The notes: generated by a model from the sequence alone, not told the origin. A DNA stretch of 64,000 bases from an uncultured Candidatus Binatia bacterium (GCA_965218425.1 OZ244621.1:1152001-1216000); one strand, 5' to 3'. Counted from the stretch's first letter, positions 25,517 through 55,387 are shown. Numbers and translations: made by a program.

Positions 25517-25734
25517 TTAGCTGTCGCGGAAAAAGTCCTCCACCGCACTCGAGTCGTTGGAAGGTCGAGTGTGAGCCCGGGTTTTCCCTTTCCCGTCGAT
25601 TGCATTTACCCGGGCGTATCGTTCGTGATAGTCTATCCTGACGTAAAGCATAGGGTCTTCTCCTTTCAGATTTGACGGCCGTTGCAACCGCCATCCTGCT
25701 GGAGCTTGACCCCTTTTTTATGTTGCCTGACACC
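25517..25734 (-). mobile_element. Module A copy 1: element end plus 44-codon IS110-like N-terminal remnant
   Basis: End GGTGTCAGGCAAC; AAGGAG RBS; ORF 25651-25517 MLYVRIDYHERYARVNAIDGKGKTRAHTRPSNDSSAVEDFFRDS. Confidence 0.7.
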
Positions 25735-25766
25735 GTTTTCTGTGCAATTCCGTGAACGCGAAATCC

Positions 25767-26501
25767 ATGACAAACCCGGTAAATGAACATACGTCGAAGA
25801 ACACGCATAACGTCGTAGAGCGGTTCCTGCGCGGCTCCGAAAGCGTGAAGATGGTGCTCGACATTCCAGCTGGCGAAGGGTCTTTCACGCAGCGACTGAT
25901 CTCAGATTACGAAGTCACGTCTGCCGACGTGCAGGACTTCCTGAAGGTCGAGGGCGGCACGTATGCCCGGGCTGACATGATCGAGCGGCTACCGTGGGAT
26001 GACGGGACGTTCGACGCCGTCGTGAACATCGACGGCATTGAGCATATTGAACGACAATTTGACTTCATCCTGGAGTGCCACCGCGTCTTGCGCCCAGACG
26101 GTTACCTCATCATATCGACGCCCAATATCTCGGCGCTGCGTTCGCGCTGGCGTTACTTGATTACGGGGTTCCACAACAAGGGCAAGGTTCCGCTCGACGA
26201 GACACATATCACGCCCTGGCATCACATTGCGCTCCTCTCGTTCCCCCAGTTGCGTTACATGCTTCACCGCTCGGGATTCCGGATCACCGACGTGACGACG
26301 AACCGAGTCAAGACGGTCAGCTGGATTTATGCGCCCCTGGCACTCCTGGCGTATGTAGTGACGAAGTGGGTCTTCTACAAGGAAGAGAAGGACCCGGCTC
26401 AACGTGAGCGTAACCGCGAGATCATGAAGCAGATGTTCAGCTACGACGTCCTGTTCGGCGAGACGCTAATCCTTCGAGCTAGGTCACTTCCCGATTCCTG
26501 A
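25767..26501 (+). CDS. Class I SAM-dependent methyltransferase (Methyltransf_11)
   Basis: VLDIPAGEG, LPWDDGTFD, GIEHI, HRVLRPDG, STPN. Confidence 0.88.
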   Translation: MTNPVNEHTSKNTHNVVERFLRGSESVKMVLDIPAGEGSFTQRLISDYEVTSADVQDFLKVEGGTYARADMIERLPWDDGTFDAVVNIDGIEHIERQFDFILECHRVLRPDGYLIISTPNISALRSRWRYLITGFHNKGKVPLDETHITPWHHIALLSFPQLRYMLHRSGFRITDVTTNRVKTVSWIYAPLALLAYVVTKWVFYKEEKDPAQRERNREIMKQMFSYDVLFGETLILRARSLPDS

Positions 26502-26536
26502 CTGCGCCGCGCTCCTTCGGAACATTGCTCGAAACC

Positions 26537-26627
26537 ACTGTCATTCACGCCTTTTTGCTATTCCGGGTTCCCTTCCCCTTCGGATTCCGGCTTGTATCGT
26601 GCCAATTCTCTCTTGGAACATCCTGTC
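26537..26627 (-). repeat. Module A copy 2 (right part)
   Basis: TTCCGGGTTCCCTTCCCTTCGGATTCCGGCTTGTATCG core. Confidence 0.8.
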
Positions 26628-26706
26628 TTCTCCAGCCGAATGGCTGTCTCCGGTGACATGGCCGCATGGGACATTCGGCGCCCACGGCTGCCTCACATGC
26701 GGGGAT

Positions 26707-27099
26707 TTACAGCAGCGACACACCCTCAAGCCGTGCCGCCTTCTGATCGAAGGTGTAAAGGGGATGTGCCCCGGATCGTTTCGCCGCCGCCAGGATTATC
26801 AGGTCGGAAAATCCGGAGCCACCCGCCCGGTATCGGAACGCTGCGCGGGCTACATCGTCGGCTGCCTCGACCACGAGACCATCGGTCGCCACCAGCTCTT
26901 CCAGTATCGTCGCAATCCGGTCGCAGGAATAGCCATAGGCCCTCTCCAACACCCAGGCGAGCTCAACCGTTACCTCCCGGCACACGTAGCCGGGCCGACC
27001 GGCGGTGAGCGATTCCAGGAGTGTCCGGGCGGCTTCAGCCTGTTCGGCGTCATCACGCACGAGGTAGCGGACAAGGACGTTGGTATCGAGTGCGATCAT
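26707..27099 (-). CDS. vapC: PIN-domain toxin
   Basis: IALDTNVLVR, E, FSDLII, TFD. Confidence 0.9.
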   Translation of the reverse strand: MIALDTNVLVRYLVRDDAEQAEAARTLLESLTAGRPGYVCREVTVELAWVLERAYGYSCDRIATILEELVATDGLVVEAADDVARAAFRYRAGGSGFSDLIILAAAKRSGAHPLYTFDQKAARLEGVSLL

Positions 27100-27329
27100 C
27101 CCTCACACGCCCCATCGGCGATGGCCCGCTCCATTTCCTCCACCGTGACGGCGGGGCCGTCATGCCGGAGGGCGCCGAACAGTCGGCTGATGGGGCGCAC
27201 GGGCAGAATGCGCACTTCGCCGTCGGCGATAACGTAGCGTACCCGGTCCCCGGCCTGCAGGCCAAGCGACTCCCGCACGGGCTTGGGCAGGGTCGTTTGC
27301 CCCCTCTTTGTGACAGAAGATTCGATCAT
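27096..27329 (-). CDS. vapB: AbrB/MazE-type antitoxin
   Basis: VTKRGQTTLPKPVRESLGL..GD; 4-bp overlap with vapC. Confidence 0.88.
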   Translation of the reverse strand: MIESSVTKRGQTTLPKPVRESLGLQAGDRVRYVIADGEVRILPVRPISRLFGALRHDGPAVTVEEMERAIADGACEG

Positions 27330-27352
27330 GACAACTCCTCCTATGGCCTTTC

Positions 27353-27381
27353 AATATACTGAACGGCCTTACTTTTGTCAA
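27353..27381 (-). promoter_or_regulatory. Sigma70 promoter of vapBC
   Basis: TTGACA-N17-TATATT on the minus strand. Confidence 0.7.
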
Positions 27382-27544
27382 TAAATAAGGGATTTCTTGT
27401 AATCTCCGCACCTTCGTGGCTCATCATCCGCCGGTCTCCCTTTCTCCTCGCCCCGCCCGACATCTTTCCCTGCGCGCCGGTAAGTAACCGCTGAAGACTG
27501 GAGTTAGCCCGATTCGACCCCGATTTCTAAAACCCGAGAGCTTC

Positions 27545-27678
27545 CCCGCAGCGGGGTCATCGGGCCTGGTCGATACCTTGGCGACGTGGGCCGCGCCCCT
27601 TTTTTCGTCGATGAGCACCAGATCGGTGAACGTGCCGCCGATGTCCATCCCCAGGCGGATTTGCAAGACTTTACGCAT
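27545..27678 (-). pseudogene. Hydantoinase/oxoprolinase N-terminal remnant
   Basis: IRLGMDIGGTFTDLVL...KVSTRPDDP, then homology is lost. Confidence 0.75.
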
Positions 27679-27694
27679 CCTTCCGCGTTCGACA
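27665..27694 (+). repeat. 30-bp direct repeat, copy 1
   Basis: AAGACTTTACGCATCCTTCCGCGTTCGACA; 28/30 identical to 28379-28408. Confidence 0.85.
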
Positions 27695-28231
27695 TTATTT
27701 TTTGCAATTCTTCCTGCCGGCCAATTTTTCCGAAGTCGTCATTCCGAAATTACATTCCCTGATGAATTCACCATCTCCGGAGCGGCCGTACACCACGTCG
27801 CCATTCTCGTCATAGATGGTCTGGGTGATCGACACGACTTCGCCCCGATGGTGCTGAACGATGAGCACCTGCTCGTTCCCCGGCTCCCCGACAAAAACAT
27901 CGGTGAGGTATCTCTCCGTGCTCGTGCTCACGACGGGGACGGCGGCGTCTGCCAGGAAACTGACCTTTACGGTGTTGTCCCGATTCACCGTTACGGAACA
28001 GCTTTCCCCCGTCGTTTCAAAACCCACCATGAGTCTTTGCATGAAGCCCCTCGCGGGTATGTGGACGCAACCATGGCGTGTTCCCGCCTTCAATTTTTCC
28101 TGGCTTCGAGGCGGGTGCGATAGAAGCCGCTTCACATAGCTTTTGGTCAAGGGCTGCTCGGCGGCGCTATTGCAGATTATTGCAAAGAGAAAAAAAAGTG
28201 TGGAAATCAAAACGAATTTCATCTTTTTCAT
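27695..28231 (-). CDS. Secreted hypothetical protein
   Basis: MKKMKFVLISTLFFLFAIICNSAA signal peptide; GAGGG RBS; several Cys. Confidence 0.7.
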   Translation of the reverse strand: MKKMKFVLISTLFFLFAIICNSAAEQPLTKSYVKRLLSHPPRSQEKLKAGTRHGCVHIPARGFMQRLMVGFETTGESCSVTVNRDNTVKVSFLADAAVPVVSTSTERYLTDVFVGEPGNEQVLIVQHHRGEVVSITQTIYDENGDVVYGRSGDGEFIRECNFGMTTSEKLAGRKNCKK

Positions 28232-28378
28232 TCAACGCCCCTCATATGATATGCCAATCCACGTCACCATGTCATCGAAACGCCTGAAAATGGGCCGAAA
28301 CGACTGTGCCCGGCTCCCTCACCCAAACCGCGCCGCGCGACCGAACCGGAGCAGCTCCCGATTTCCGGGCAAGTTGAT

Positions 28379-28408
28379 AAGACTTTACGCATCATTCCGC
28401 GTTCGGCA
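28379..28408 (+). repeat. 30-bp direct repeat, copy 2
   Basis: AAGACTTTACGCATCATTCCGCGTTCGGCA. Confidence 0.85.
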
Positions 28409-28468
28409 GTATGTCGCCATCTTGAACGATGGGTTTTCCATCGAACCAGACCGAAGGCGCCCGCAACC

Positions 28469-28744
28469 GGTATCAGGTAACATGAAAAAGGGGTCAAGCT
28501 CCAGTAGGATGGCGGTTGTAGCGGCCGTCAAACCTGCAAGGAGCAGACCCCATGCCTTACGTCGGGATAGACTGTCTCAAACGATACACGCAGGTATATG
28601 CCATCGACGAGAAAGCACCGCATCCATTTCTTTGGTTGACCGCGTCCAACCGGACAGGACGTTCCAAAAGAGAATCGGCGCGATACAAGCCGGAATCCGA
28701 AAGGGAAGGAAACCCGGAACAGCAAAAAGGCAAGTATGACCCGG
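28469..28744 (+). mobile_element. Module A copy 3: full MITE-like unit of about 275 bp
   Basis: GGTATCAGGTAAC...TATGACCCGG ends; IS110-like MPYVGIDCLKRYTQVYAIDEK; tail FQKRIGAIQAGIRKGRKPG*. Confidence 0.75.
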
Positions 28745-29064
28745 TTTTCAACGGGGAGCTGAGAAGGGACTCAATCGCAGTTGTAGAATTAGGGGCACGG
28801 TCAGTAAGGCACATACACAGAATAATTGAAGGAATTGACGGGAGTCTAAGGGTGCAACGCATTTTCAAGGAAAAGGCCCACCTCAGAACCTCGTTAAAAA
28901 TGGACGAAGGATAGGTTATTCACCTGACAGGCCACACTCGCCGTTGCTCATGGTTCCTCCGGGGCCATGAGACCCGCCAGGTCGGCCGCCTACGACTTCC
29001 GCACCGCCTCGCGGCGCTTCTCGATGCCGGCGTATGGCATGGGGGTTTCTCCCGGATTACCGGG

Positions 29065-30126
29065 TTATCGTCGCCCGCTTTTCCTGACCGCCGGCGCCGG
29101 CGTGCCGTCGACGCAGTTCAGTTGCGCCTCTCCGCCCTCAAGCAGCGCCTCGAGCACATCCCGTTCAGCGGGATCGACGCTCAACCCGTATTCCAACTTT
29201 ACCTGGATCACTCGTTGCGCAAACCATGCGCCGTGTCGGGCCGGCATCCATTCGGCTGCGTCCCGGTCACTTTTCTGCGACCGGTTCACCGCCCGATCCG
29301 CGATCGTGAGGTTATCGAGGTCGCGGGCGATAGCCCGGCGCCGACCGTCAGCGATTCCGCTATCGTGCGCCTCCGCCAGCGCAACGATGTGCTCTATGTC
29401 CGTCGCAGCGGTCCCGTTCGCCGTGATGTCGAACGCGATGCACGAGTACGGTGTGTGGACCTGCCCGTTCGCCTTCATCGTCGGCGGCAGCGCTGCGATG
29501 ATCTCGTCCTCCAGGGTCCTGTAGCCCGTCCCGAAGGCGTCGCGGTCGTAGCCGTCCCGCGGCCGCTCTTCGCAGACCTTCACCCCACGCCAAGTCTCCG
29601 CGTCAGCCGGGCAGCCCTGCGTATCCAGCGGCGGCTGCGGCTGGACATTGGGGATATAGCCATTGGGGTTCGAAGCAGAGTCACAGGCGATACCATCGGT
29701 GTCCGTGTCGCTCGATCGGCTCCGCTCCAGCCATGCGTAGATGATGCCGGTGCCGTCACGGTCGTCCTGGTACGCAGGCAACCTCAGGCCCTCATCACGG
29801 CCTTCCGCTTCAGCGCATATCAGGTCGCCGTTCCCGTTAGCATCCCAGTATGAGAAGTCGTTGTGCGATTGCGCTGCCACTGGCGGTGCGGGGAGCAGCA
29901 TCAGAACGCCGAGCAGGACGGCTGAGATTCCGTGGCTCCCGTGAGCTTGCAACTTGGGCGCCCTACCTAACAAGGCTTGAAGCTGGTTCCAATTTCGTGG
30001 GCAGCCTGGTCCTCTTGACATGGTGCGCAAGTCGGCCCTGCTGAGGAACACTTTTCGGCGGGCAGATCCTCGGTTCATCAAATGATAGACTGCACCCCGA
30101 TATTCAATGCGTAAGGGCCGTGACAT
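29065..30126 (-). CDS. In-frame chimera: Y1 transposase N-terminus (32 aa) plus secreted DUF1524/HNH-like nuclease
   Basis: MSRPLRIEYRGAVYHLMNRG..RRKVF; then a signal-like segment, DANGNGD, DIEHIVALAEAHDSG, NL..NRSQKSD..EW; cargo may start at Met 30021. Confidence 0.7.
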   Translation of the reverse strand: MSRPLRIEYRGAVYHLMNRGSARRKVFLSRADLRTMSRGPGCPRNWNQLQALLGRAPKLQAHGSHGISAVLLGVLMLLPAPPVAAQSHNDFSYWDANGNGDLICAEAEGRDEGLRLPAYQDDRDGTGIIYAWLERSRSSDTDTDGIACDSASNPNGYIPNVQPQPPLDTQGCPADAETWRGVKVCEERPRDGYDRDAFGTGYRTLEDEIIAALPPTMKANGQVHTPYSCIAFDITANGTAATDIEHIVALAEAHDSGIADGRRRAIARDLDNLTIADRAVNRSQKSDRDAAEWMPARHGAWFAQRVIQVKLEYGLSVDPAERDVLEALLEGGEAQLNCVDGTPAPAVRKSGRR

Positions 30127-30311
30127 CGAAAGCCTTAATTACAGTTCACATTCCAATTATCGACAAAATACTTGGCCCCTTCGCCTTGCCGGCGCCCCGG
30201 TTGCGTCCGGTCGTTTGCAGGAAGACACGCGGGCCATCGACCGGGGAGAGGGCCGCATTAGCCCAAATTAAATTAGCTCATAGCCCATAATTTTTCCGTT
30301 TCACAAGCCGC
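30031..30311. repeat. About 280 bp repeat (Y1 transposase 5' end, TIR, flank) shared with 35585-35868
   Basis: Colinear match including TTATCGACAAAA(T/G)ACTTG(G/A)CCCC at 30157-30179. Confidence 0.85.
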
Positions 30312-30500
30312 GTGAGACTCGCGTATGTTTGAAGTCCCGGACCTAGGGTCGGCGCGCGGTGTCATTCGACACGTCGTCGAAGCCCGGTGTGGCGGTTTCA
30401 TGGGGCGTTTCCTGAAACTAACGGAATGGGGGAACGAATGAGATTGCGGGGGTGCTCGCAGTTCGAACTGAGACAATACCAATATGAAGGAGGCAGTACG

Positions 30501-32384
30501 ATGTTTATCCCCCAAATTGGGTTCTTAGCCAAATCAAAAAATGCAAGTGCTTCCAGTGTCTTGTGGGCGCTTGTTTGTGTTTTCATGCTGTCCGGTTGCG
30601 CAGGGGGGGGAGGGGGAGTCACCCTCATGCCACCGCCTACGACACCGCCTAAGCCGGTGGACCCAACGCCGGGCTTGCCGCTCCCTTCGGGGCATGGGTT
30701 GATGGCAGGCCAGATCACGGTGGCGGCGGGGGCATCGGAAGAGCACGGCAATGTTGTGGTGACGTGTCCCGCGGGCGGCGGTGCGTGCGCGGTGACGGTG
30801 GCGGCGGACGGCACGGCGGTTTACGACAGGACGGGCGGCACGCCCACTTTCATATTTGCACATTGGACATACGAGCGGGACAACCCTACAGCGGAGGACT
30901 TGCTGGATCACTGGAACAAACCGGAGCAGTTGCGCACAGCATTGGGGCTGTCAGTGGTTGATGCCGCGGACATCGCCGACCGAAAGAACGCTCTAACGGA
31001 GTTGCTCAATTCGGCCGGAGGCGATGCAGCCGAGACCGGGACCCGGCTCCGCAACGTTCGGCCGGAGGATGTCGAGATCATCGGCGAGCGGAACGGAATC
31101 ACCTACGGGCGGTGGACGGGCGGTCCGGCCGGAACCTTCAACATCGATTTTGACTACAGATTCGCTCCCGAGGCCACTCAGGAACAGCGGGCGCGGATAG
31201 AACGGGCTGGCAAGTCCTGGTCTTGGCGTCTGGATGACGAATCGCGGAGATTTACGGTCGAAGCTGGTCAGCAGGTAGCGCGCAGCAGGACGATCGACGG
31301 GGTTCCGGTCGAAGAACTGCGAGTGGACGAAGACGTAACAACAGATGGCTTGGTGATCTTCGTTGACTTCCACGGTGGCACCCGGCGAAGCAGGGGCGGA
31401 CCCAGCATCTCGAGCCGAAGCGCTCGGGAGCAAGGCGACTTCCACCCCTACGCCGGTAGCATAAGAATCGGGACACCCCGCTTCGATGAAGTTTCCGAGA
31501 GAGGCAACCTCCGGCTGACCGGCCTTCTCGCCCATGAGATCGGGCACGTGATGGGAATCGGGTCAACCCTGAGACGAGACCCCTTCGTTGCCCACGTAGA
31601 CGAGGCGGCATATACCTTTACCGGGCCCAACGCCGTGGCAGAGCATGGCGGGCCTGTCCCGTTCCAATGGCTGGACAACAACCGTAATTCAGTTCCGCCA
31701 CGCACCCCAGGAGCGAGCGTGGATTGGGTACATATAGGCCCATGCGGTTCCGTCATGTCCTACTGCCGTCACGAATACGACATATATGCTCCCACCGAGC
31801 TGGACTTCGCATTCCTCAAGGATATCGGCTACGAAGTCCTTGATCCAAGTGTCGCGGAAGAGCCGGAGATTTACGGGTATGGGGCTTGGGGCCGCTACAG
31901 CGCATGGGGCGCGGGCGTGGAGCGTACCATCACCCATGACGCAGACATCCGTGGCAGCTTCAAGGATCTCGATACCCGAGACGCCCTCCATGCCACAGCA
32001 GACGCCTTCGGCTCAGCTCCCACCACGCCACTAACCGACAGCATCCAAGGCACCGCCACCTGGTCCGGCTCCCTCTTAGGCGTGGACATCGGCCAACCCA
32101 TGCTGCCGCCGGTGTTCGGCAACGCGGAGCTCAACGTGGACCTGGCCACTCTTAGGGGTTCCGCCCAGTTCCGTGACCTCACAGTGCACGTGGACAGCGT
32201 TTCCACCGCGTTCCGCGCTCCTGAGCTGCAATACAGCATCAACGTTAACGGCAACACTTTCTCCGACGCCGCGGGCCATGTCCAGGGCGGATTCTTTGGC
32301 CCCAATCATGAAGAGATGGCGGGTGTGTTGGATGACAGGGCTGCGGCTGTTAGCTTGCTGGCGGGATTTGGCGGGAGGCGGTAA
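30501..32384 (+). CDS. Lipoprotein: zincin metalloprotease plus C-terminal TbpB-like beta-barrel
   Basis: Lipobox LSGC, Gly/Pro linker, HEIGHVMG, HIGPCGSVMSY, GFFGPNHEEMAGV. Confidence 0.8.
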   Translation: MFIPQIGFLAKSKNASASSVLWALVCVFMLSGCAGGGGGVTLMPPPTTPPKPVDPTPGLPLPSGHGLMAGQITVAAGASEEHGNVVVTCPAGGGACAVTVAADGTAVYDRTGGTPTFIFAHWTYERDNPTAEDLLDHWNKPEQLRTALGLSVVDAADIADRKNALTELLNSAGGDAAETGTRLRNVRPEDVEIIGERNGITYGRWTGGPAGTFNIDFDYRFAPEATQEQRARIERAGKSWSWRLDDESRRFTVEAGQQVARSRTIDGVPVEELRVDEDVTTDGLVIFVDFHGGTRRSRGGPSISSRSAREQGDFHPYAGSIRIGTPRFDEVSERGNLRLTGLLAHEIGHVMGIGSTLRRDPFVAHVDEAAYTFTGPNAVAEHGGPVPFQWLDNNRNSVPPRTPGASVDWVHIGPCGSVMSYCRHEYDIYAPTELDFAFLKDIGYEVLDPSVAEEPEIYGYGAWGRYSAWGAGVERTITHDADIRGSFKDLDTRDALHATADAFGSAPTTPLTDSIQGTATWSGSLLGVDIGQPMLPPVFGNAELNVDLATLRGSAQFRDLTVHVDSVSTAFRAPELQYSINVNGNTFSDAAGHVQGGFFGPNHEEMAGVLDDRAAAVSLLAGFGGRR

Positions 32385-32488
32385 AAATTGCAGGTGGCCG
32401 CTTTGGTTTGACGCGCCGCGGCCGGCGCCGGGCTCCGCGGCGCAGGACGAAAAAGCAGGGTTGCTCTTACTGATGGTATCTGGGGGCC

Positions 32489-32619
32489 GGCGTCATGCCT
32501 GCCTTCTTGCTGTTCTGGGTTCCCTTCCCTTTCGGATTCCAGCTTGTATTGTGCCAGCTCTCTTTTGCAATCTCCTGTCCGTTTGGACGCGGTCCACCAA
32601 AGCATGGATGCGGTTCTTT
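32489..32619 (-). repeat. Module A copy 4 (right part)
   Basis: GGCGTCATGCC end; TTCCCTTCCCTTTCGGATTCC core; encodes KNRIHALVDR on the minus strand. Confidence 0.8.
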
Positions 32620-32621
32620 AT

Positions 32622-32750
32622 CGTCGGCGTAGCGGATCAACAATAATTGAGAATGGCCTGGAAAATCCGAGAAATTCCGGGGCGAAACGACCCGTAAATC
32701 GCCCATGCAAAGCCCCTTAAAGGGGTGTGCATCGACCGCGCTCGATGCCG
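32622..32750. repeat. Module D copy (IS-end-like), shared with 38064-38190
   Basis: GTCGGCGTAGCGGATC..AATAATTGAGAATGGCCTGGAAA.TCCGAGAAATTCCGGGGCG...CGCCCATGCAAAGCCCCT. Confidence 0.8.
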
Positions 32751-32769
32751 CCGGAAACAGAAAAACGTC

Positions 32770-33055: not shown

Positions 33056-33127
33056 GAAAAGATTTGACCCCTTCGCCGGAGGCCGCCATGCGGTCGGTCC
33101 ACATCCTCTGCCCAGGTACCGGGACCA

Positions 33128-33232: not shown

Positions 33233-33281
33233 CCCCCCTTATACAATATGTGGTGGAGTGTACAAGGCCCAGGCACAATAT

Positions 33282-37992: not shown

Positions 37993-38000
37993 ACAAAGAC

Positions 38001-43769: not shown

Positions 43770-43775
43770 TATGAC

Positions 43776-47111: not shown

Positions 47112-49144
47112 TCTTCAAACGCATACGCCTTGAGAACCTGTTTGCCTATAAGGGTATTCAGGAAATTGATCTTACGGGGTGCGGTAAGGGAAGGAACATT
47201 ATTCTTATTTCTGGCCGCAATGGTACAGGTAAAACAAGCTTTATCAATGCTGTCAAACTTCTATTCCTTGGCGCTAACGATCAGCGTCTGCGACGTGTTG
47301 GCTTCCCGCCTACGACTCTTGCCACAGGCCAATTTGTTCGGGGTGTTCCGGGCGTGTGGTCCGGTTTGTTCAACACTCAAGCGCGACGCGACGATTCTGA
47401 ACGAGCGTCAATATCAATCATTTGGGAAGAAGAAGATGGAGTTGAGTTTGAGGCCCGACGAAGCTGGCGTTTGAATGGTCCTAGCTACGAAGAGAACCTC
47501 GATCTATACAAAAACGGAGAAGCGTCAAATCCAGACGACGTCTCCTTGCAGCTTGCAGAAAAACTGCCGCACGACTTTGTGCCGTTCTTCTTTTTTGACG
47601 GCGAACAAATTCGTGAACTTGCCGAAGCGGAGGAGGATATCACTGCAAATGAGATCGAACGCATATTGAACCTCTCCTTTGTGGGCGAAATAGAACAGGG
47701 CGTGTCGGAATTCGTACGGCAGCGTCGCCGTGAGGCGCTACCCGAAGAAACGCAGGTTCGAATACGACGTGCCGAGGGAGAACTTGCCACGAAACAGGCA
47801 GAAAAAGCGGTGGCGGAAAGACGGCTGATGAATTTTCAAGAGGCCATCCAGAAGACCGAGTCCCGCAAACGTGAACTGACGGTCGAGAGGGACGAATTAC
47901 GTACCGGTGTTTCCGACGCGGACCGACTGCTTCTCGAACAACGCCTGGAGACGTTGGAATCGCAAAGATCGGATTTGGCCCGTAAGATCAGCGAGACTCT
48001 GCCGCCAGAGGCGCCGTTCCTCGCAAACCTTAAACTAACACTCCGCGCATACGGGGATGTAGAAACCGTCGTATCGGCACGAGCCGCTCAGGAACTTGGG
48101 AGGCTCGACACTCTACGTCGAGAACTGCCCCACCGGCTGCTGGATCAGGAGCCACACCCTGAAACGCCGCTCGACCCATCCCAGATTGAACACTTACGCG
48201 GGAAGCTCCTATCGCTCATAGAAGAATATACTACTCTGGAGACAGCAGATCAGTTGCCATCCTATCTCCGAACACTCGATCTTGCTAGCGCCCAGAGTTT
48301 GCGCGACCGTTACCTAATTTGGGTTCGCGAGGGCGTAAGACACAGACGTTCCATCGCCACAGAGTTACAACAGATACGCAAGCTTACTGTAGAGGCGGAA
48401 CAAACGACGGAAGAACTAGCCCGGGTATCTGTCGCGTCGAAGGGCCACCTTCAACGCTTTCGCGAGATATCCAAGGAGCTTGACGAACTCGATAATGAAT
48501 TAGCCGCTAAGCACGAGGATGTCGGAAAGGTTGAGGCCGAAATCTCTCAATGCGCGCGCACCATATCCGAAACCCGTAAGCAAGTCGCCGCGCTTGAAGA
48601 AGAACACGAACAAGCCAGAATGACTGGCCAGACTGTCCAATACGCAAGACATGTCGAGGCAGTTCTGCACGAATATAGAGCACGCCAAAGAGAGTTGAGG
48701 CGCACCTCTGTCGAAAAACGCATTAACGAGAAACTGGGTATTCTTCTAGCCGAACACGGACAAATCGGGCGCGTAAACCTCAGCAACCGGTTCATAATGA
48801 CGTATTATGACAAACATGATCAAAAAATTGGGCGCGTAAGTATTTCTGCCGGCATGAAGCAGCTCGTCGCAACAGCATTACTGTGGGCACTAAAGGACGA
48901 ATCCGGTAAGAAGATACCTCTGGTCATCGATACACCACTTGCTCGCATCGACCGCCGAAATCGCGCGCGTCTTTTGGACTCCTATTACCCTAATGCGGGG
49001 GAGCAGGTCATTGTGCTCCCCACAGACAGCGAGATTGATGACAGCCAGTTACTGCATCTCGCTCCACATATTGCCAAAAGGTACCGGATAGAGAATGTCG
49101 ACGGCGAAAACGCCAAGATTGTTCTGGATCAAACCAATGTCTAA
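47108..49144 (+). CDS. dndD: DNA sulfur modification SMC-like ATPase DndD
   Basis: GRNGTGKT, FFFFDGEQI, long coiled coil, ISAGMKQ, VIDTPLARID, YYP....QVIVLPTDSEI. Confidence 0.92.
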   Translation: MIFKRIRLENLFAYKGIQEIDLTGCGKGRNIILISGRNGTGKTSFINAVKLLFLGANDQRLRRVGFPPTTLATGQFVRGVPGVWSGLFNTQARRDDSERASISIIWEEEDGVEFEARRSWRLNGPSYEENLDLYKNGEASNPDDVSLQLAEKLPHDFVPFFFFDGEQIRELAEAEEDITANEIERILNLSFVGEIEQGVSEFVRQRRREALPEETQVRIRRAEGELATKQAEKAVAERRLMNFQEAIQKTESRKRELTVERDELRTGVSDADRLLLEQRLETLESQRSDLARKISETLPPEAPFLANLKLTLRAYGDVETVVSARAAQELGRLDTLRRELPHRLLDQEPHPETPLDPSQIEHLRGKLLSLIEEYTTLETADQLPSYLRTLDLASAQSLRDRYLIWVREGVRHRRSIATELQQIRKLTVEAEQTTEELARVSVASKGHLQRFREISKELDELDNELAAKHEDVGKVEAEISQCARTISETRKQVAALEEEHEQARMTGQTVQYARHVEAVLHEYRARQRELRRTSVEKRINEKLGILLAEHGQIGRVNLSNRFIMTYYDKHDQKIGRVSISAGMKQLVATALLWALKDESGKKIPLVIDTPLARIDRRNRARLLDSYYPNAGEQVIVLPTDSEIDDSQLLHLAPHIAKRYRIENVDGENAKIVLDQTNV

Positions 49145-49147
49145 GGA

Positions 49148-50647
49148 ATGACCATGGACAAATTTTATTTCGGACGAGATGAACGAGCTTTCATGTTCCG
49201 CGTGATAGAAAAAGGAATGCTGCAAAAGCCAGGCCAAGCTCCACAATGGTGGGTTGTACGCCTCGCCTTGGCAAAATCTTTACAATTCGAAGAGCCTCCC
49301 AACGATGATAAGTTTGCGCCGCCACCGCATGTCCAAGGCGGAAGCGAGTTGCACCTTGATCAGATTACCGGAAAAGATAAGGGCGGATTGGAAGATTATA
49401 CACGCGCGTTGAAGCTTTTGCTGTCGGCACGTCATGGTGCCGACCTTATAAGCAATGATGCACTTTTTGAAGAGACACTACACAGACATATACGCAGAGG
49501 TCTTCATGAAATAAAAATTTCGTGGCGTGAAAATTCTGATTTCTTTGATTATTTGTATCAAGATTTGTTCTTTGAGAAGTTTACAAACGAATCCGGTGAG
49601 ACAAGCCTCGGCGATATATCAAATGAAGACCTGACTTTAGCACTGCATAAGATAGGGGTACGCGTTGAGGTTGAACAAAAACTTGATGGCCCAAGATTGT
49701 CGCGCTTCAGACTTGTTTTATCCGGTGTCGACGATTACGACAAACTACGAAGAAACATCGACGATCTCAACTTTATTCTTGGTCTGAGTGCTAACAGCAT
49801 ATCGTTTGAATTGGGTGGGGGCGAACGCAGGATTGTCTTGGACATCCCGCGACCAATGTCCATCTGGCACTACATAAAATGGGCTGAGGCTCAGAAGGCT
49901 CTTCAGGAAACGTCCTACCGCTTGCCTGTCTGTTCGGCTACCGACGTTCTGGGCGTTCCCATTTCTTTTGATTTGGCCTCCGCGCCCCATCTCTTGATAG
50001 GCGGCACCACTGGTAGCGGGAAAAGCATCTGTGTCCACGCGATCATATTGTCGCTGATTGTGTGCGTTGAGCGCCCGGAGTTGGTTCTCGTTGACCCGAA
50101 GGCTGTCGAGTTGACGGCGTATACGAACTACGGAAATCTGAGAGGAGGCCGTGTCATTACAGATATGGCTGATGCGAGGGCTGTTTTTCAAGAACTTGTG
50201 AAGACGATGGACCAAAGGCAAAAGGACTATATGTCTATCGGCGTGCGCGACATCGACGAAGCTCGGAAAAAGGGTAGCGATGACCGCAGCATTGTGGTGG
50301 TCGTCGACGAACTGGCAGACCTTGTCCTAGGAAACCCAGAGGTTGTCGGTCCACTTGTCCGTCTTGCCCAAAAGGCGCGCGCTTTTGGCATTCATTTAGT
50401 GTTGGCCACACAGCGCCCAGAGGCAGGAACATTTCCCGGCCTGTTACGGTCCAACATACCAAGCCGTATCGCGCTGACTGTCCAGAAAAATTCCGAGTCA
50501 CGGATCATCCTGGATGAGGGAGGCGCGGAGAACCTGCTCATGCGGGGCGACATGCTTGTACGCATGGTCGGTCAGAAGACAATCCGCGCGCATGGCGTCA
50601 GCGTGTCGCAGTCGGATATCGAAAGGGTTCTTGCCGAACATGGCTAA
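49148..50647 (+). CDS. DndE-like domain fused to FtsK/SpoIIIE ATPase
   Basis: N-terminal WVVRLALAKSL..GSEL..QITG..HIRRGL (DndE-like); C-terminal PHLLIGGTTGSGKS, VDELADL, ARAFGIHLVLATQRP; no TM or gamma domain. Confidence 0.8.
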   Translation: MTMDKFYFGRDERAFMFRVIEKGMLQKPGQAPQWWVVRLALAKSLQFEEPPNDDKFAPPPHVQGGSELHLDQITGKDKGGLEDYTRALKLLLSARHGADLISNDALFEETLHRHIRRGLHEIKISWRENSDFFDYLYQDLFFEKFTNESGETSLGDISNEDLTLALHKIGVRVEVEQKLDGPRLSRFRLVLSGVDDYDKLRRNIDDLNFILGLSANSISFELGGGERRIVLDIPRPMSIWHYIKWAEAQKALQETSYRLPVCSATDVLGVPISFDLASAPHLLIGGTTGSGKSICVHAIILSLIVCVERPELVLVDPKAVELTAYTNYGNLRGGRVITDMADARAVFQELVKTMDQRQKDYMSIGVRDIDEARKKGSDDRSIVVVVDELADLVLGNPEVVGPLVRLAQKARAFGIHLVLATQRPEAGTFPGLLRSNIPSRIALTVQKNSESRIILDEGGAENLLMRGDMLVRMVGQKTIRAHGVSVSQSDIERVLAEHG

Positions 50648-51815
50648 CGAAGAGCGCAATATCCACATCCGCGACTTCCGTCTGGTTAAGCTCACACTCG
50701 TAGATGTTGGCCCATTTCGGGAGTATTATGAAATAGACTTTACTGGCGCACCGCTATCCACAGGTGCCGAGAAGGGCAGTGAAACCGCGTGCGAACCAGC
50801 AAATTTTTTCTTGTTACTTAGCAAGAATGGTTTCGGCAAAACCACGGCCCTTGAGGTGATCACGCTACTTTTTGATCTGCTCGGCAAATCTGAAGCTTCC
50901 CGTTTTGGCCATTACGACCTCGATGATGGCACGGGTAAGATACAGGCAGATTTTCGTGCTAACTGGTCTATCGACGACTCGCGCTCACCCGTCCTTCTTT
51001 CGATCTGGGCGGGAAGCGAAGGACCCGTTTATGTTTGGACCAAAAGTGATATCGAGTCTGTTGCGAATGCCTCTGAGTGGGCCAAGGTAGGCTTTGTACG
51101 TTCGCGATCATCAGACCGGATAGAGCTTGGGCCAGGAACAAACGAACTTGGCAAGATCCTCGCAACGGCTATCCGGCACGCGGTCGGCACACCGCCGCCA
51201 GCGCTGTTCGGAGAGGGTTTTGATCTGCCGACAGTGCTCTTCTTTCCAGCCGACCGCGCCGTAAGGCGCCCGCCACTTGCGGGCCGTGCAGTGTCGAGGC
51301 CGGAGCACTGGGGATATCGACCGTCCTTTCGGTTTGAAGTCGACGGGACTGAGTGGGCGAACTCCCTTGACAATTTGTTGGTTTGGCTCTCGTGGCTGGC
51401 GGACGACAGAGACCGTGTCTTGCGAGAATACGTTGAGAAAACCGTATTTATGGATGGCAGAAAAGGATTACTGGAAGTAGACCGTGAGCGACTATCCGCC
51501 AATGTCAAGACACCCGACGGGGTACATCCGCTCTACAACCTCAGCCACGGTGAAAGGCAGGTGTTGCAACTTCTTGTACGCACACCGGTCCACATGACGA
51601 ACAGCACGATTTTGCTGATCGATGAAGTCGAAATGCACCTGCATCCAAAGTGGCGGGTCACACTATTGGAAACGCTCAAAGTGCTTGTCAAAGATTTTGA
51701 GGGCCTTTCAGTAATTGTGACAACCCATGAGCGCGAACTCATACAGGTGTTTCAACATGAAGTGCCCGAAGAGGGCTTAGTGAAAGGTGGATTCTTGATC
51801 GAGCAGGACTTGTAA
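50640..51815 (+). CDS. ABC-type AAA_21/AAA_15 ATPase (AriA/OLD-like)
   Basis: KNGFGKT, LSHGERQ, LLIDEVEMHLHP, TTH; overlaps upstream stop. Confidence 0.88.
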   Translation: MANEERNIHIRDFRLVKLTLVDVGPFREYYEIDFTGAPLSTGAEKGSETACEPANFFLLLSKNGFGKTTALEVITLLFDLLGKSEASRFGHYDLDDGTGKIQADFRANWSIDDSRSPVLLSIWAGSEGPVYVWTKSDIESVANASEWAKVGFVRSRSSDRIELGPGTNELGKILATAIRHAVGTPPPALFGEGFDLPTVLFFPADRAVRRPPLAGRAVSRPEHWGYRPSFRFEVDGTEWANSLDNLLVWLSWLADDRDRVLREYVEKTVFMDGRKGLLEVDRERLSANVKTPDGVHPLYNLSHGERQVLQLLVRTPVHMTNSTILLIDEVEMHLHPKWRVTLLETLKVLVKDFEGLSVIVTTHERELIQVFQHEVPEEGLVKGGFLIEQDL

Positions 51816-52690
51816 TGCCGAACTTAAGAGAGCTGGGGGACAGCAATGCTGTTGATAATAAGTATGTCGACCGGATCGTGTTTTATGTAGAAGGTGAGGA
51901 TGATAAAAGTCTTCTGACTGTCTACTTGTTGAAGCATTACGTCTCTAAAGTTGAAGTCAAAACGCCATCAGCATTGGGAAGCGGTTACCTGGGGGTAATT
52001 CAACGGGTTAGCCAAGAGCGAGGTATGAACGGAAAAATCTTCGGCATAGTCGATGGTGAAGCGCTTTTGCCCTTGGGGCATGTTTCGATATACAAAGAGA
52101 TGTTTGGAGGATGGAATTGGATCACCCTTCCTAAATTTGACGGCATTTACTTTATTCCGTGTTGGGAGATAGAAAACCTTCTCTATATTAGAGATATTTT
52201 GCCACAGACGCTTATTGCCCTTCAGCCTGTATCGAAGCTCTCGCGTTTGACTGAAAGATCTGTCGAAAACATCATCCTGACGGAGGCATTCCGACTTTCA
52301 GAGTTATCTTCGTTGAATTTAGCACTTTTAGCAGAGTCGTATGATACAATAAGAGCAGAAACAAAATCGAACATTGAGAAAAGACATGATTTACTTACGG
52401 AAATTGGGACGACGATCGCCTCGTTAGATAAGGCTCACTTAGTGAAAAATGGGTATGATAATTGGAGGCAATTTTTTCGCGAGCTCCTTCGAGGGAGCCG
52501 AACACGAGACAAAATATACGATGAATTTATTAGTCGTGTTGACGGGAAGGCATTATCTATAAGATTGAGTAAAAAATTAAATGTTCAACCCGACATTCGT
52601 TCAACACTCGCGTACAATTTTTCCAATAATAAGAAAACAATGAAAATTATTGACGCGCTATTGGAAACGGTCAATCGGCGCGTTCCGTGA
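51815..52690 (+). CDS. DUF4435/TOPRIM-like protein (AriB-like)
   Basis: FYVEGEDD, GIVDGE, WEIENLL; TAATG coupling to ATPase. Confidence 0.72.
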   Translation: MPNLRELGDSNAVDNKYVDRIVFYVEGEDDKSLLTVYLLKHYVSKVEVKTPSALGSGYLGVIQRVSQERGMNGKIFGIVDGEALLPLGHVSIYKEMFGGWNWITLPKFDGIYFIPCWEIENLLYIRDILPQTLIALQPVSKLSRLTERSVENIILTEAFRLSELSSLNLALLAESYDTIRAETKSNIEKRHDLLTEIGTTIASLDKAHLVKNGYDNWRQFFRELLRGSRTRDKIYDEFISRVDGKALSIRLSKKLNVQPDIRSTLAYNFSNNKKTMKIIDALLETVNRRVP

Positions 52691-52902
52691 ATTGTGGCTA
52701 ATCATCTGAAATTGAAGTATGCTTCAATAATCGTTACGCAAGCCGTTGCTCGTATTAACCTAAATTTTGCAGTTGATGCTGGTGCACAGCTATCGTTTGG
52801 AGGGTTTTTCAACCAGTTGGTGCAGTCTGAAGGGGCGTGAGCCATCGCTGTCGACCCGGTTGTCGACCTCCGGGATATTCTTTAACGCTTCGATCAGGAA
52901 TT

Positions 52903-53014
52903 AGTGTCGGGCACACTTTTTTGCTATTCTGGGTTTCCTTCCCTTTCGGATTCCAGCTTGAATTGTACCAATTCTCTCTTGCAATGTCCTGTCCATTTGG
53001 ACGCGGTGTTCTAA
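52903..53014 (-). repeat. Module A copy 7 (right part)
   Basis: Core TTCCCTTTCGGATTCC; same break GGACGCGGT|GTTCTAA as copy 8. Confidence 0.8.
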
Positions 53015-53232
53015 TTGGCCCTCTCCGACAGAAAGAACATTACCGTGAGGCGGCAATTAGCTACCCCAAGCAAACGGGCCGGCCGTCCCGCGAGACTGTG
53101 CCGTTATTCCAATCACTTGACACTGGGGTAAGTGCAGAATCGTGGCAACACGTAACTGCAATCTGGACGGGCCGGAGATCCGAAAGCTAGTTTCACGACG
53201 TGGAGGCTAGGCTGCCTCACAGTGTTTAGGCT

Positions 53233-54324
53233 TTATCGATTAGCATTCCGAAGTTCGCGATGAATGATCCGGTGACAGTTTGCGCATAGGCACATCAGGT
53301 CTTGCAGTTGCGTATTGTGTCCGGGCGGCATGTCGGCTAACGGAAGTTTGTGATGCACATCGATGCACGCATCACCGATATCGATCCCATAGACTTCTGC
53401 CGGATCTAGTCCGCAGCGTTCGCATAGCAATCGGCCGTGTTCACTTATGAACGCCGCCTTTTTTGCCGGTGCAAGCCCCCATCCCCGCTCGCGTTGAAGG
53501 TGGATTACATACTTCGGGTGCCCTTCGATCCAATCGCGTTCGTCCGGGTTTGGCGGTACTTCAACGGGTTGGACCGGCCCGTCCTTCGGGACGATCCGGT
53601 ATCCGGCGGCGGTGATCGCTTTGAAGCAGGGGGTTCCGATGCCACCCACAAAGTGATACGGCAAAACCTCGAAGCCGAGAGCTTCGGACACCGCTAGACC
53701 GAACACGGCCTTAGGTGCAAGGCGCGACCCGTCCTCGGTAATAACGTCATAGTCAGTGGATTCACCGAACGAATGCTCGCCTGAACCGAAAAGAAGCCGT
53801 TGCACCGCACGCCAGATGTGTTCGGCAGATACCGGCTGCAACTCTGCAGCCCGTAGCCTTTTGCGTCGGTTTGAGGCTGCGCCAGTCTCGCCCCAGCCTG
53901 CAATCCGGGCGATCCGCTCGCCGGGGGGATTTCCGGTAAATGCGAAACGAAGCCTTTTTGTGGAATTTCCACGGTTGTTTCGGTTGTTCGGATCACGACC
54001 GACCGCAGCCATTCTGTTCGAGAATCTGGTGAACAATTCAGACGGCGAAACCTGAGTGTCTTCGGGAAGGAGTATTTTTCTTTCCTCCATTGGCAAATTT
54101 TGGACACGACTGCTGTCTACCCACACTCCGACCAACGTCAGGTCCGATTGATCGATTCGCTCGAGAAGAATACGCAGTGCCTCACCATATTTAGTGTTTT
54201 GTGCGTTGGTGGTGTCTTTGGTTCCGCCGCGCGAATGCAAAATTAGTTTTCCTTCCTGTACTTCGAAATGAGCATCCATTGGAGTACCGGAATCATTGTG
54301 GAATTTGTATAAGGTTACCGACAC
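53233..54324 (-). CDS. McrA-like HNH endonuclease with N-terminal accessory domains
   Basis: EG...H..RER; CERC...IDVHH...CLCANCHRIIH; middle YDV...APKAVFGLA...FVGG (ScoMcrA head-like). Confidence 0.85.
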   Translation of the reverse strand: MSVTLYKFHNDSGTPMDAHFEVQEGKLILHSRGGTKDTTNAQNTKYGEALRILLERIDQSDLTLVGVWVDSSRVQNLPMEERKILLPEDTQVSPSELFTRFSNRMAAVGRDPNNRNNRGNSTKRLRFAFTGNPPGERIARIAGWGETGAASNRRKRLRAAELQPVSAEHIWRAVQRLLFGSGEHSFGESTDYDVITEDGSRLAPKAVFGLAVSEALGFEVLPYHFVGGIGTPCFKAITAAGYRIVPKDGPVQPVEVPPNPDERDWIEGHPKYVIHLQRERGWGLAPAKKAAFISEHGRLLCERCGLDPAEVYGIDIGDACIDVHHKLPLADMPPGHNTQLQDLMCLCANCHRIIHRELRNANR

Positions 54325-54480
54325 AACCGGATCCTATCGTGTTTGTTGTCTGCGTCCCAGGCCTCGTGCATCATGAGCTGGGCCCGCGACAGCGCATTAC
54401 CGCCGCCTACATTGACCCGGTCGGCCAATGAGACTCCAGTGATCTGCGTCATCACGCCCTCGATCGCGCATCGACCGGGC
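54325..54480 (-). pseudogene. Fragment of helical-repeat hypothetical protein
   Basis: ALSRAQLMMHEAWDA...RIRL truncated at the HNH gene. Confidence 0.35.
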
Positions 54481-54680
54481 AAATGCAGAGGTGGCGTGGG
54501 GGCATGCGGCGCAGCATTCTTTGTACTGACGAGCAGCGGTTTTTTGCCGTTCTTACGGCAGTTCTTGCTGATACGCATAGGTGGAATACCAAGGGTGCTT
54601 CAAGGGGTGGTAGTTTAGCAAATTCCGCCTCGGATCGCTTGTGGTTTTTTTCGTCCTCTCGAGCGAAATTGGAGCCGATG

Positions 54681-54990
54681 TTGTGGGGGTCAGACCTTGA
54701 CATTTGACATGATTCATCTCGCCTTCTCAAAAGTTATTGAGGGAGCACTAAAGCTCTCCCGCCACTGTCGCCCCCCAGGTTGCACTGTCCCGACACCACG
54801 AGGTGGCGGCTGCTGCAATATGCGTCAAGACCCCGTCGCATGACGTGGAGCGGCTCGGCCATGTCGTCTTTTGAAACCGGAGTCATGCCCGCCTTTTTGC
54901 TATTCTAGGTTTCCTTCCCTTTCGGATTCCCGCTTGTATCGTGCCGATTCTCTCTTGCAATGTCCTGTCCATTTGGACGCGGTGTTCTAA
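54681..54990. repeat. Module B copy 3 plus module A copy 8; direct repeat of 41570-41871
   Basis: About 300 bp colinear match. Confidence 0.88.
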
Positions 54991-55035
54991 CCAGCGCAAC
55001 CCACGGCTCATCACTCCGTCATCACGGCTTGAATA

Positions 55036-55197
55036 TCGGCGTAGGCGGACGGAAATAATTGGATATAGGCCGGAAACCGGCCGGATTTTCCGGGGCATTT
55101 AGGGCTCGAAAAAGGGCCCTGCAAGGGCCGTTAAATCGGGGCGGGCGGCGCCTCATGAATCCCCCCTCATTGGAACGCGACCACCGTGAGTAGAAGG
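55036..55197. repeat. Module D copy
   Basis: TCGGCGTAGGCGGACGGAAATAATTG start like 32622 and 38064; remainder matches 20550-20675. Confidence 0.75.
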
Positions 55198-55277
55198 AGT
55201 TACGTCTTGTGTGGTCGATAACGTGTTTCGATTATTTCTACGGTCATGGCTCTACCTCTCGGAGTCGAATTTGATGG

Positions 55278-55387
55278 TGCACTGTTGCAAAGTTGCTTTG
55301 GAGGTGTTTTCGGTGTCTGTAAGTCATCGATTCTGTGATACCTGATTTTCGGTTTTTACCTGGAAAACCCAACTTTGCGGCAGTGCC
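55278..55387. mobile_element. 110-bp MITE with IS26/IS6-like terminal inverted repeats
   Basis: TGCACTGTTGCAAAGTTG ... CAACTTTGCGGCAGTGCC (15/18). Confidence 0.7.

Follow-up and report, generated by a model that had tools for sequence, protein, structure and literature searches.

We describe a 36-kb anti-phage island in the genome of an uncultured Candidatus Binatia bacterium in which short repetitive modules alternate with unrelated cargo genes. The window, that is, the whole stretch of DNA that was analysed, is 64,000 nt long (GCA_965218425.1 OZ244621.1:1152001-1216000). The island, which is strain-specific, lies 3' of an AOR gene at a hot spot for insertions. Judged from sequence comparison, its modules are best read as debris of at least four unrelated mobile elements and not as copies of one recombination site. 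We consider it probable, at roughly 0.6, that the island is part of a nested graveyard of non-autonomous transposon ends lodged in flexible defence islands, between which recombination and duplication take place. A preliminary description of positions 25,517 to 55,387 had called the modules transposon-derived, which the identities of the elements bear out, and had seen in them an integron-like cassette platform, which fared less well.

A library of modules was made from the window (P, A, B, Bx, E, F, D, D2, G, H and K), and the window modules (20-57 kb) were compared by BLAST with the organism's own genome (G000), a single 4.46-Mb contig. Eight copies of a module A had been listed in the preliminary description; repeats are indeed present at those places, but two unrelated modules, A and P, had been merged, which are adjacent in a composite P-A unit. 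True A has six copies in the window, namely 26540-26627(-), 28630-28751(+), 32487-32602(-), 41762-41878(-), 52918-53007(-) and 54874-54983(-). One belongs to a truncated Y1A-type 3' end with terminal repeat at 26531..26673 on the minus strand (A positions 24-111, 88.6%), another is joined to a short P remnant and cut by an E module at 32481..32623 (minus strand; module search), and the copy at 52903..53038 (minus strand) was recovered by repeat finding, module search and tblastn as residues 283-325 of Y1A, the transposase described below.

A comprises the last 35-77 codons of a Y1/HUH transposase gene, Y1A, with the stop codon and the inverted-repeat end. A PF01797 search of the genome returned four Y1 genes. 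Y1A (C1:2583267-2584241, 325 aa) is its own sole intact copy and lies 1.4 Mb from the window, inside another module cluster. It carries a Y1_Tnp domain (PF01797, 2.7e-17) and a DnaA_C helix-turn-helix (PF08299, 1e-5), and its translation contains what we take to be the HUH and Tyr motifs. Among the NCBIfam models it best matches NF047646, that of the REP-associated tyrosine transposase (RAYT), at 72.0 bits against a curated cut-off of 80; the second score obtained with this model, Y1A and Y1B (see below) being tested, was 65.6 bits against the same cut-off. Inverted repeats of ~26 nt flank Y1A, the right one containing the stop codon, and the C-terminal ~50 codons, the stop codon and the flank are collinear with modules X and A. 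With its matching terminal repeats, Y1A is the intact Y1 transposase that was to be looked for; the origin of A, B and the 5' ends in Y1/HUH elements, as claimed earlier, is upheld by Y1 genes with matching ends, and the suggestion of a Y1 transposase acting in trans gains support from an intact Y1A elsewhere in the genome.

A tblastn search with Y1A finds 49 loci in the genome. Copies of A begin at Y1A residues 288-291 (in P-A units), at 275 (where a D/E-type element abuts) or at 249-256, and because four copies retain residues 1-55 joined to 249-325, internally deleted Y1A derivatives have evidently multiplied. No conserved A hairpin was found on either strand (alifold -5.6 and -4.0 kcal/mol; z-scores -1.5 and -0.5), nor any adjacent inverted A-A doublet among 50 genome copies. 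Orientation linked to replication would be expected for single-strand Y1 transposition; this was rejected for A, since A(-) dominates on both sides of the skew-inferred origin at ~1.8 Mb (19:10 and 17:4).

Module P had been assigned to Y1 together with A, wrongly, as it is IS1111-like. It has four copies in the window, at 25588-25738(-), 28465-28615(+), 37998-38063(+) and 41894-42019(-), besides a remnant of ~20 nt at 32603-32623. By its sequence, P corresponds to the left end and first 22 codons of an IS1111/IS110-type insertion sequence (IS) that inserted in the Y1A terminal repeat. A longer version, the P+H unit at 25526..25753 on the minus strand, consists of Y1A-repeat flank, left end and the first ~43-52 codons of a decayed IS1111/IS110-type transposase gene, and aligns with residues 1-43 of P0002. 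In general, P plus H covers 52-56 codons from the start of such a gene. The best-kept P+H paralogue (L013) has an open reading frame (ORF) of 56 aa that matches PF01548 positions 1-42 at E=0.0044, which is below the cut-off; over all 56 aa it is 70-77% identical to full-length proteins of 331-355 aa with PF01548 and PF02371. Many full-length relatives of the parent of P are found on metagenome contigs, and their upstream regions match P (at least 40 copies).

The full-length relatives start directly after the word GGGGTCAGG or CTAGCAGG, and a conserved region 3' of the stop codon repeats the flank word in 13/13 loci with the first word and in 8/8 with the second. One of the 22 evaluable loci did not fit, and seven more were frameshifted and not counted; as the flank words fall in just two classes, these loci represent few independent events. 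Across L024-L049 the 8-nt left-flank word recurs ~16 nt past the transposase stop and covaries with the flank (GGGTCAGG in 13 of 13, CTAGCAGG in 8 of 8). The recurring word looks like the guide segment of a seekRNA. According to one report, IS1111-type elements pick their target by a seekRNA from the downstream non-coding region (PMC11187229). The layout in the relatives fits this mechanism because the word after the stop tracks the left flank, and the parent of P was probably RNA-guided. At L038, L040 and L051 the IS1111-like element lies within a long palindrome, in one of its arms. Six full-length IS loci had no Rfam match.

No intact parent of P was found in the five family genomes searched (G000-G004), G000 holding N-terminal fragments only, up to residue 63, and the right-end and guide motifs of the parent have 0 matches in the genome. 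An 1804-bp IS110-family IS, whose two copies account for both intact IS110-family genes of the genome, was rejected as a parent of the modules for want of homology. Module A was likewise rejected as the right end or guide-RNA region of the IS1111-like element, being unlike the 3' regions of at least 80 metagenomic and genomic loci.

The complete P-A unit at 28458..28766 (plus strand) is a chimera resembling a miniature inverted-repeat transposable element (MITE). It comprises a Y1A repeat, the IS1111-like left end with 22 codons, Y1A codons ~290-324 with the stop codon, and the right inverted repeat; tblastn places Y1A residues 290-324 at 28629-28733. The genome has 24 P-A units of 173-287 nt with sharp ends and, in the alignment, ~15 nt in inverted orientation, so that they show the MITE traits of being short, non-coding, multi-copy and sharp-ended with terminal inverted repeats. 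An identical 75-nt deletion bounded by a 7-nt direct repeat is present in 7/24 units and a common 36-nt deletion in 3/24; because several units share identical deletions, the deleted forms were copied after they had arisen. The word GTCAGG lies inside the Y1A repeat, and a GTCAGG-type left flank is found in 24/24 P-A and 5/5 P-H units. We propose that the IS1111-like element inserted right after GTCAGG in the left repeat of Y1A, that a deletion then ran from IS codon 22 to Y1A codon ~290, and that the remaining chimera of ~280 nt, with the outer left repeat and the whole right repeat, would have multiplied as P-A. More generally, deletions following the IS insertion may have yielded the chimeric units P-A, P-H and P-E-F, which would multiply in turn.

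The three B copies reported earlier (37933, 41569 and 54681) are confirmed, with 84-90% identity over 73 nt. B is the inverted-repeat end of a second Y1 element, Y1B, of which an intact 312-aa gene exists at C1:1404083-1405018 (PF01797, 9.6e-14). The first 17-25 nt of B occur as an inverted repeat on both sides of Y1B, with the stop codon inside the repeat, and a 17-nt word of B flanks Y1B as perfect inverted repeats. With up to 2 mismatches this 17-mer occurs 23 times in the genome, compared with ~0.7 expected by chance according to our own estimate. A stretch of 1.34 kb elsewhere (G000:C1:2039739-2041079) is bounded by inverted Y1B-type terminal repeats and contains ORFs without a Pfam match; it is possibly a further non-autonomous carrier of passengers.

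The two Y1 5' ends of the preliminary description also hold, as direct repeats of 90-93% at 30030..30255 and 35584..35810, both on the minus strand and of a third Y1 type. The latter includes an ORF start at 35681(-) with a RAYT-like N-terminal motif, and a 94.6%-identical paralogue of the 5' end at C1:691591-691740 matches Y1B residues 1-50 (tblastn E=3e-4). Inverted ends of this third type delimit the G element at 34237..35733 (minus strand) around a 1054-nt insert with passenger ORFs, namely 35002-35484(-) of 161 aa and 34318-34992(-) of 225 aa, and no transposase lies between the ends. G has a second copy at G000:C1:1684437-1685370, and a joint 34417>35472 in a public contig corresponds to G without the insert. 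The 161-aa ORF scores 0.95 to uncharacterised bacterial protein clusters, its nearest named match being JAB/RadC-like and low-scoring, while an atlas search with the 225-aa ORF gave low recognition and no lead. Taken together, B, the 5' ends and G are the ends of two further Y1 element types.

The D copies of the preliminary description, including the outlying one, are confirmed as D/E-type copies at 20550, 32626, 38067 and 55036-55283. The D-type module at 20550..20689 (plus strand) forms the left island junction and is a direct repeat of 55072-55200 (88% over 96 nt) with 17 genome matches. At 32624..33077 (plus strand) an E module with an rve-type-IS-like end adjoins F, which is made up of the 3' ~300 nt of an IS5/IS1182-like IS together with its inverted repeat. 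The ends of a 1636-bp IS, present in 5 copies and encoding a transposase with DUF772, DDE_Tnp_1 and DDE_Tnp_1_6 domains, match F at 96% identity. In D/E the first 18 nt are similar to the right end of a 1123-bp IS that encodes an rve_3 transposase. F and D/E derive from DDE-type ISs, and for D/E and the inner part of A the derivation is partial. Modules are further combined into mosaics. Module search identified B, P(20-85), E and K at 37933..38331 (plus strand), and the same B-P-E mosaic precedes McrBC in a genome of the same genus (G001). At 41569..42035, B and Bx (+) are followed by a P-A unit (-), with Y1A residues 288-325 at 41774-41887 by tblastn. At 54681..55510, B and Bx (+) are combined with A and X (-) and a D-D2 element with a candidate right inverted repeat at 55478-55510; Y1A residues 275-325 are recognizable there, the tblastn match at 54886-55038 having 74.5% identity and E=1.5e-14.

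The extent of the island follows from comparison with G001 and with a genome of the sister genus (G002), in both of which it is absent from the equivalent site between the AOR gene and amidohydrolase/SDR genes. In G001, C2:60210-64629 aligns collinearly with window positions 16114-20533 (87%) and C2:69958-74034 with 56697-60797 (85%), and the 5.3 kb that separate the two flanks are other, module-free DNA; in G002 a gap of 0.4 kb lies between the AOR gene and the SDR gene that comes next. Because of these flanks, 20534..56696 is a strain-specific island at a variable site. A search of both genomes with the whole island found modules and IS ends in common, plus one module-adjacent small ORF, and no shared cargo genes. 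Relatives therefore retain modules and not cargo, and a second module cluster of the genome (C1:1.92-1.95 Mb) behaves in the same way. The module clusters of G001 and G002 have other cargo, including McrBC, a HEPN protein, a caspase-like protein, a Schlafen/AlbA_2 protein, Vsr, a type I restriction fragment, group II introns and ISs. In two separate G001 clusters, near-identical group II intron reverse transcriptase genes directly adjoin A/D modules (L109:7157-8506 and L111:11216-12565). A 4.1-kb segment of another module cluster (G000:C1:1922931-1927012 and G001:C7:981415-985498) is 95% identical between the two genomes, compared with 84-87% for flanking core DNA, which suggests that island DNA has recently been exchanged horizontally.

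All modules of the window fall within 20550-55283, in agreement with the earlier statement that A and B are confined to the island. Equally, the reported absence of an intact transposase or integrase is borne out, as no Pfam match of this kind was obtained among 149 ORFs of at least 76 aa (19-58 kb) and 23 flank ORFs, the latter being ordinary metabolic enzymes. No tRNA gene was found in the window, and a tRNA integration site was accordingly rejected.

The modules are strongly clustered in the genome, coinciding with strain-specific islands. With the module library the genome counts are 50 for A, 45 for P, 19 each for B, F and the G 5' end, 18 for D, 13 for E and 11 for Bx. They form 89 patches, of which 81 fall in 11 clusters comprising 5.9% of the genome; patches occupy 22 of 90 bins of 50 kb, whereas 2000 random trials gave 56 on average and never fewer than 46. 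Intact multi-copy ISs, in contrast, are dispersed, with 73 copies in 47/90 bins (random mean 50) and 6/73 copies in clusters (6.8% of the genome), so that insertion tolerance alone fails to explain the clustering. The stretch from 0.185 to 2.93 Mb, which surrounds the skew-inferred origin, was also observed to contain 86/89 patches, and the terminus-side 38% of the chromosome has 3 patches versus 35/73 intact IS copies. Low-copy duplicated segments with 87-99% identity connect the islands, and their ends lie within 50 nt of a module in 29/304 cases versus 0.7% of random points. Mean pairwise identity is 89% for P and 87-88% for D and E, and junctions between modules recur at fixed points.

The reading that we favour combines what was observed, namely the identities of the pieces, their clustering, the strain-specific islands and the duplicated segments common to islands, with a proposed history. 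Elements would insert into each other's ends and be copied along with island DNA, producing the clustering; recombination driven by the dispersed homology would then reshuffle cargo and cut it short; and A-ended units may have been moved in trans by the one intact Y1A. Several points weigh against this history. In the 24 aligned P-A units no target-site duplication was seen by eye, no empty site was identified, and the required ancestor, a full Y1A with the IS within its left repeat, was not found. As A is not the right end of the IS1111-like element, which leaves the inner part of A unexplained by that element, the deletion route to P-A is only a reconstruction. P-H and P-E-F, with 5-6 copies each, lack the Y1A right end and must therefore have been copied by something besides Y1A mobilisation, possibly segmental duplication. 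Targeting of other elements' ends is demonstrated for the IS1111-like element only, and B is conserved in a manner unlike neutral debris, which the history leaves unexplained. Furthermore, the random-point control for segment ends is too lenient given the module density of the islands, the in-island expectation being ~13% by a rough estimate, and no short-read contig crosses a module to confirm the order of blocks.

Among the alternatives, a cassette platform driven by Y1 comes closest to the preliminary description. Y1A, perhaps with Y1B, would act in trans on DNA bracketed by its inverted ends, and A and B would be working sites that capture and exchange cargo. The intact Y1A with matching ends speaks for it, as do inward-facing A pairs that bracket vapBC with a lipoprotein gene (26531-28766), a copper amine oxidase and a Fic protein; the G element, with Y1-type ends around passenger ORFs, occurs twice, and across three genomes the modules are conserved and the cargo is different. 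A also lies just 3' of plus-strand cargo operons in the island and follows McrBC in G001, and genome-wide its tail-facing and head-facing neighbours number 28:14, although for ORFs of at least 150 aa the ratio is 22:12 by our own count and not significant by a rough estimate. However, 6/7 island A ends share one direction, so that most blocks, including the Dnd/PARIS genes, are unbracketed; on either side of the 10.5-kb Dnd/PARIS block the ends face outwards. None of the bracketed cargoes recurs, so that there is neither a second insertion site nor an empty site, and because each cargo-carrying pair of ends was seen once, none has been shown to move as a unit. The A copies are moreover old, as their mean pairwise identity is 84%, many have a common in-frame stop, and Y1A is only 55-75% identical to them at the protein level. 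We therefore regard this mechanism as unlikely, and the integron-like version put forward earlier is not borne out, since ends mostly do not bracket cargo, A has no attC-like fold and no block was seen moving. We are just as doubtful of its wider form, in which the Y1A and Y1B ends would be live substrates, a RAYT-like transposase with a DnaA-type DNA-binding tail would move DNA between two inverted ends of 17-26 nt, and A and B would serve as a lineage-wide scaffold for defence-gene capture, exchange between islands and swaps between strains.

The conservation of B leads to another explanation, that selection retains some modules, B and Bx above all, because they act as promoters, terminators, small RNAs or protein-binding sites, their transposon origin being incidental. 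B (in the window 37933-38000, 41570-41628 and 54681-54740) is 97.8% identical among 17 genome copies and Bx 94.9% among 10, and B is 98-100% identical in G001 (C6:718036-718108) and G002 (C1:1259547-1259605), where core genes next to it are 72-87% identical (72-80% in the sister genus). Such identity suggests either selection or very recent spread, which would account for it equally well. B contains TTGACA words and A tends to follow the 3' ends of genes; against this, the gene next to B is co-oriented in 11 cases and opposed in 8, for which reason B was rejected as a mobile promoter, A has the weak folding scores given above, and an Rfam search of 19-58 kb yielded no family (best E=0.59). Host function is hence an improbable main cause of the pattern. 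Less probable still is that the modules are passive debris only, which accumulated in clusters through tolerated insertions or arrived with foreign DNA, without targeting and without a role in rearrangement. The islands are strain-specific and rich in decayed genes, and GC content shifts block by block from 47% to 61%, as such an origin would have it. Yet intact multi-copy ISs are not enriched in the clusters, insertion of the IS1111-like element into the Y1A repeat is sequence-specific, module junctions recur at fixed points, and cargo segments are duplicated between islands, some with ends at modules. Finally, repeats could have caused chimeric joins such that the order of the island is unreal. 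Five public runs hold parts of the stretch as short contigs; those of four runs break inside modules and none spans one, and joints between contigs (sides of 20-50 nt) mostly reflect other module copies and reveal no circles. On the other hand, X2 contigs run from unique cargo to the module edge with 0 differences from the window (25001-25700, 25689-26584, 31061-32542 and 41993-44231), the genome is a single contig, and comparable mosaics of modules and cargo exist in G001 and G002, which makes an assembly artefact very improbable.

The cargo was annotated with Pfam and PADLOC, which agree with the earlier list of methyltransferase, vapBC, nuclease, lipoproteins, restriction-modification, Dnd and HNH genes. 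From left to right, a SAM-dependent methyltransferase (25752..26498, plus strand; Methyltransf_11 1.3e-11) is followed on the minus strand by a VapC (PIN) toxin with an AbrB/MazE-type antitoxin at 26710..27329 (PIN 4.5e-15, MazE_antitoxin 4e-9) and by a cut gene, the N-terminal fragment of a hydantoinase/oxoprolinase at 27427..27678 (Hydant_A_N positions 1-38 of 176). A 34-nt direct repeat, 27665-27698 and 28379-28412, at the hydantoinase gene start flanks a 0.68-kb lipoprotein segment, of which a 97% identical copy lies beside a P module at C1:1940761-1941388. A nuclease-like ORF at 29068..30126 (minus strand) has a weak GmrSD_C match below the cut-off (E=6.7e-4). A TbpB-like lipoprotein gene at 30387..32381 (plus strand; TbpB_B_D 6.9e-6) has a paralog at 36111-37607, and an HSDR_N_2 domain protein is encoded at 33285..34142 (minus strand; 7.4e-10). 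A type II restriction enzyme and methyltransferase occupy 38881..41003 on the plus strand (REase_II 2e-80, MTase_II 2e-26).

The next gene, at 41061..41585 (plus strand), is a 175-aa ORF matching positions 2-129 of 724 of pAgo_II (E=2.9e-11) and ends at the start of B, 41569; its sequence marks it as a remnant of a class II prokaryotic Argonaute defence gene that the B-Bx-A-P mosaic truncated. This and the hydantoinase fragment substantiate the earlier remark that genes are cut. A Dnd/Ssp-type phosphorothioation cluster at 42504..50644 (plus strand) encodes DndA/SspA, DndC, GmrSD-type HEC-06/Orf5, DndD/PbeC and a DndE-FtsK/SspH-like protein, with PADLOC values of 2.7e-159 (SspA), 2.3e-113 (DndC), 4.5e-72 (HEC-06), 1.8e-100 (PbeC) and 1.6e-44 (SspH). 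The GmrSD-type gene (DUF262/DUF1524, HEC-06/Orf5-like; 44900-46753) lies between dndC and dndD, and at 49148-50644 a DndE domain is fused to an FtsK-type ATPase (SspH-like); a gene order with these two features is unusual for Dnd systems. Next come an AAA_21 ATPase and a DUF4435 protein at 50514..52687 (plus strand; AAA_21 1.1e-15, DUF4435 7.3e-6) that weakly resemble AriA/AriB of PARIS (AriA 6.9e-16, AriB 5.8e-7), and an HNH nuclease of a type IV restriction-like kind at 53236..54324 (minus strand; HNH 2.4e-4, mREase_IV 3e-9).

Of the nearest known systems, RAYT/REPIN is one in which the flank of a low-copy Y1 gene is an abundant repeat of the genome (Bertels, Gallie & Rainey 2017, PMC5581495). 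Our genome is similar in having a Y1/HUH gene (one intact Y1A) with a terminal flank that is repeated ~50 times as non-autonomous copies without a visible target duplication, and public sources name Y1A homologues RayT or REP-associated tyrosine transposase. It differs in that the repeat consists of the 3' end of the gene and a 26-nt inverted repeat instead of a REP (repetitive extragenic palindromic) hairpin or REPIN doublet, the Y1A protein has a DnaA_C helix-turn-helix extension, there are several diverged Y1 paralogues per genome, and copies are clustered in islands and not spread through extragenic space. Proteins that combine Y1 with DnaA_C form a large family (at least 7875 with E<=1e-10 among 8000 candidates scored), many of them publicly labelled RayT or transposase. 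Elements of the IS200/IS605 family are not known to have terminal inverted repeats and have subterminal hairpins instead. Y1A and Y1B share with them the Y1_Tnp catalytic domain and the multiplication of internally deleted copies with both ends, and are unlike them in having terminal inverted repeats of 17-26 nt and a transposase about twice as long, with no TnpB found.

Mosaics of short modules with recurrent junctions are also known from enterobacteria, as bacterial interspersed mosaic elements (BIMEs), and from Neisseria, as NIMEs/dRS3, which an IS110-like recombinase targets and which accompany variable gene blocks. Sequences and host are different here, and the modules are traceable to named transposon ends. 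Integrons and CALIN arrays similarly have short recurring sequences between unrelated, often promoterless-looking cargo, with an orientation bias and the element often 3' of the gene. In contrast to them, the present modules are heterogeneous, their spacing is 1-11 kb and not one gene, and A has no attC-like imperfect hairpin. No IntI or tyrosine recombinase was found among the 172 window ORFs scanned, the rest of the genome not having been searched for IntI. For lack of a conserved A hairpin and of an integrase in the window, an attC/integron interpretation was rejected, and the likeness is superficial, a matter of layout only.

For the IS1111/IS110 family, two papers report guidance by a seekRNA or bridge RNA (Siddiquee et al. 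2024, PMC11187229) and modular transposition of ISPpu9/MITEPpu9 into REP/BIME clusters (Pares-Guillen et al. 2025, PMC12288879). The likeness is that P is the left end of an IS with a DEDD transposase, full-length relatives bear the left-flank word in their 3' non-coding region, and other repeats are entered at a fixed position, with ISPa11 and ISPpu9 inserting into REPs and ISKpn4 and ISPst6 into attC. ISPpu9/MITEPpu9 is a precedent for modular, truncated and hitchhiking pieces, and truncated or chimeric modules persist here too; because P-A has no IS right end, it cannot be a hitchhiker of P's parent in the manner of MITEPpu9. The genome further differs in that it lacks the right end and guide-RNA region of the element as well as any intact copy, and in that the target is a Y1 terminal repeat.

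Most of the mosaic has thus been traced to named elements, in Binatia, a little-studied uncultured lineage. It documents a RAYT-like Y1 family with true inverted repeats, whose dispersed repeat consists of gene-end fragments and not of REP hairpins, an IS1111-type element that targets the end of another transposon and appears to have given rise to an amplified chimeric MITE, and fossils almost confined to strain-specific defence islands, in contrast to the dispersed intact ISs. Should the ends prove active, defence islands would be assembled by a new route, a counterpart of the integron based on an HUH transposase. If they are inactive, the island is a well-resolved case of nested transposon debris that marks, and probably recombines, the flexible regions of the genome.

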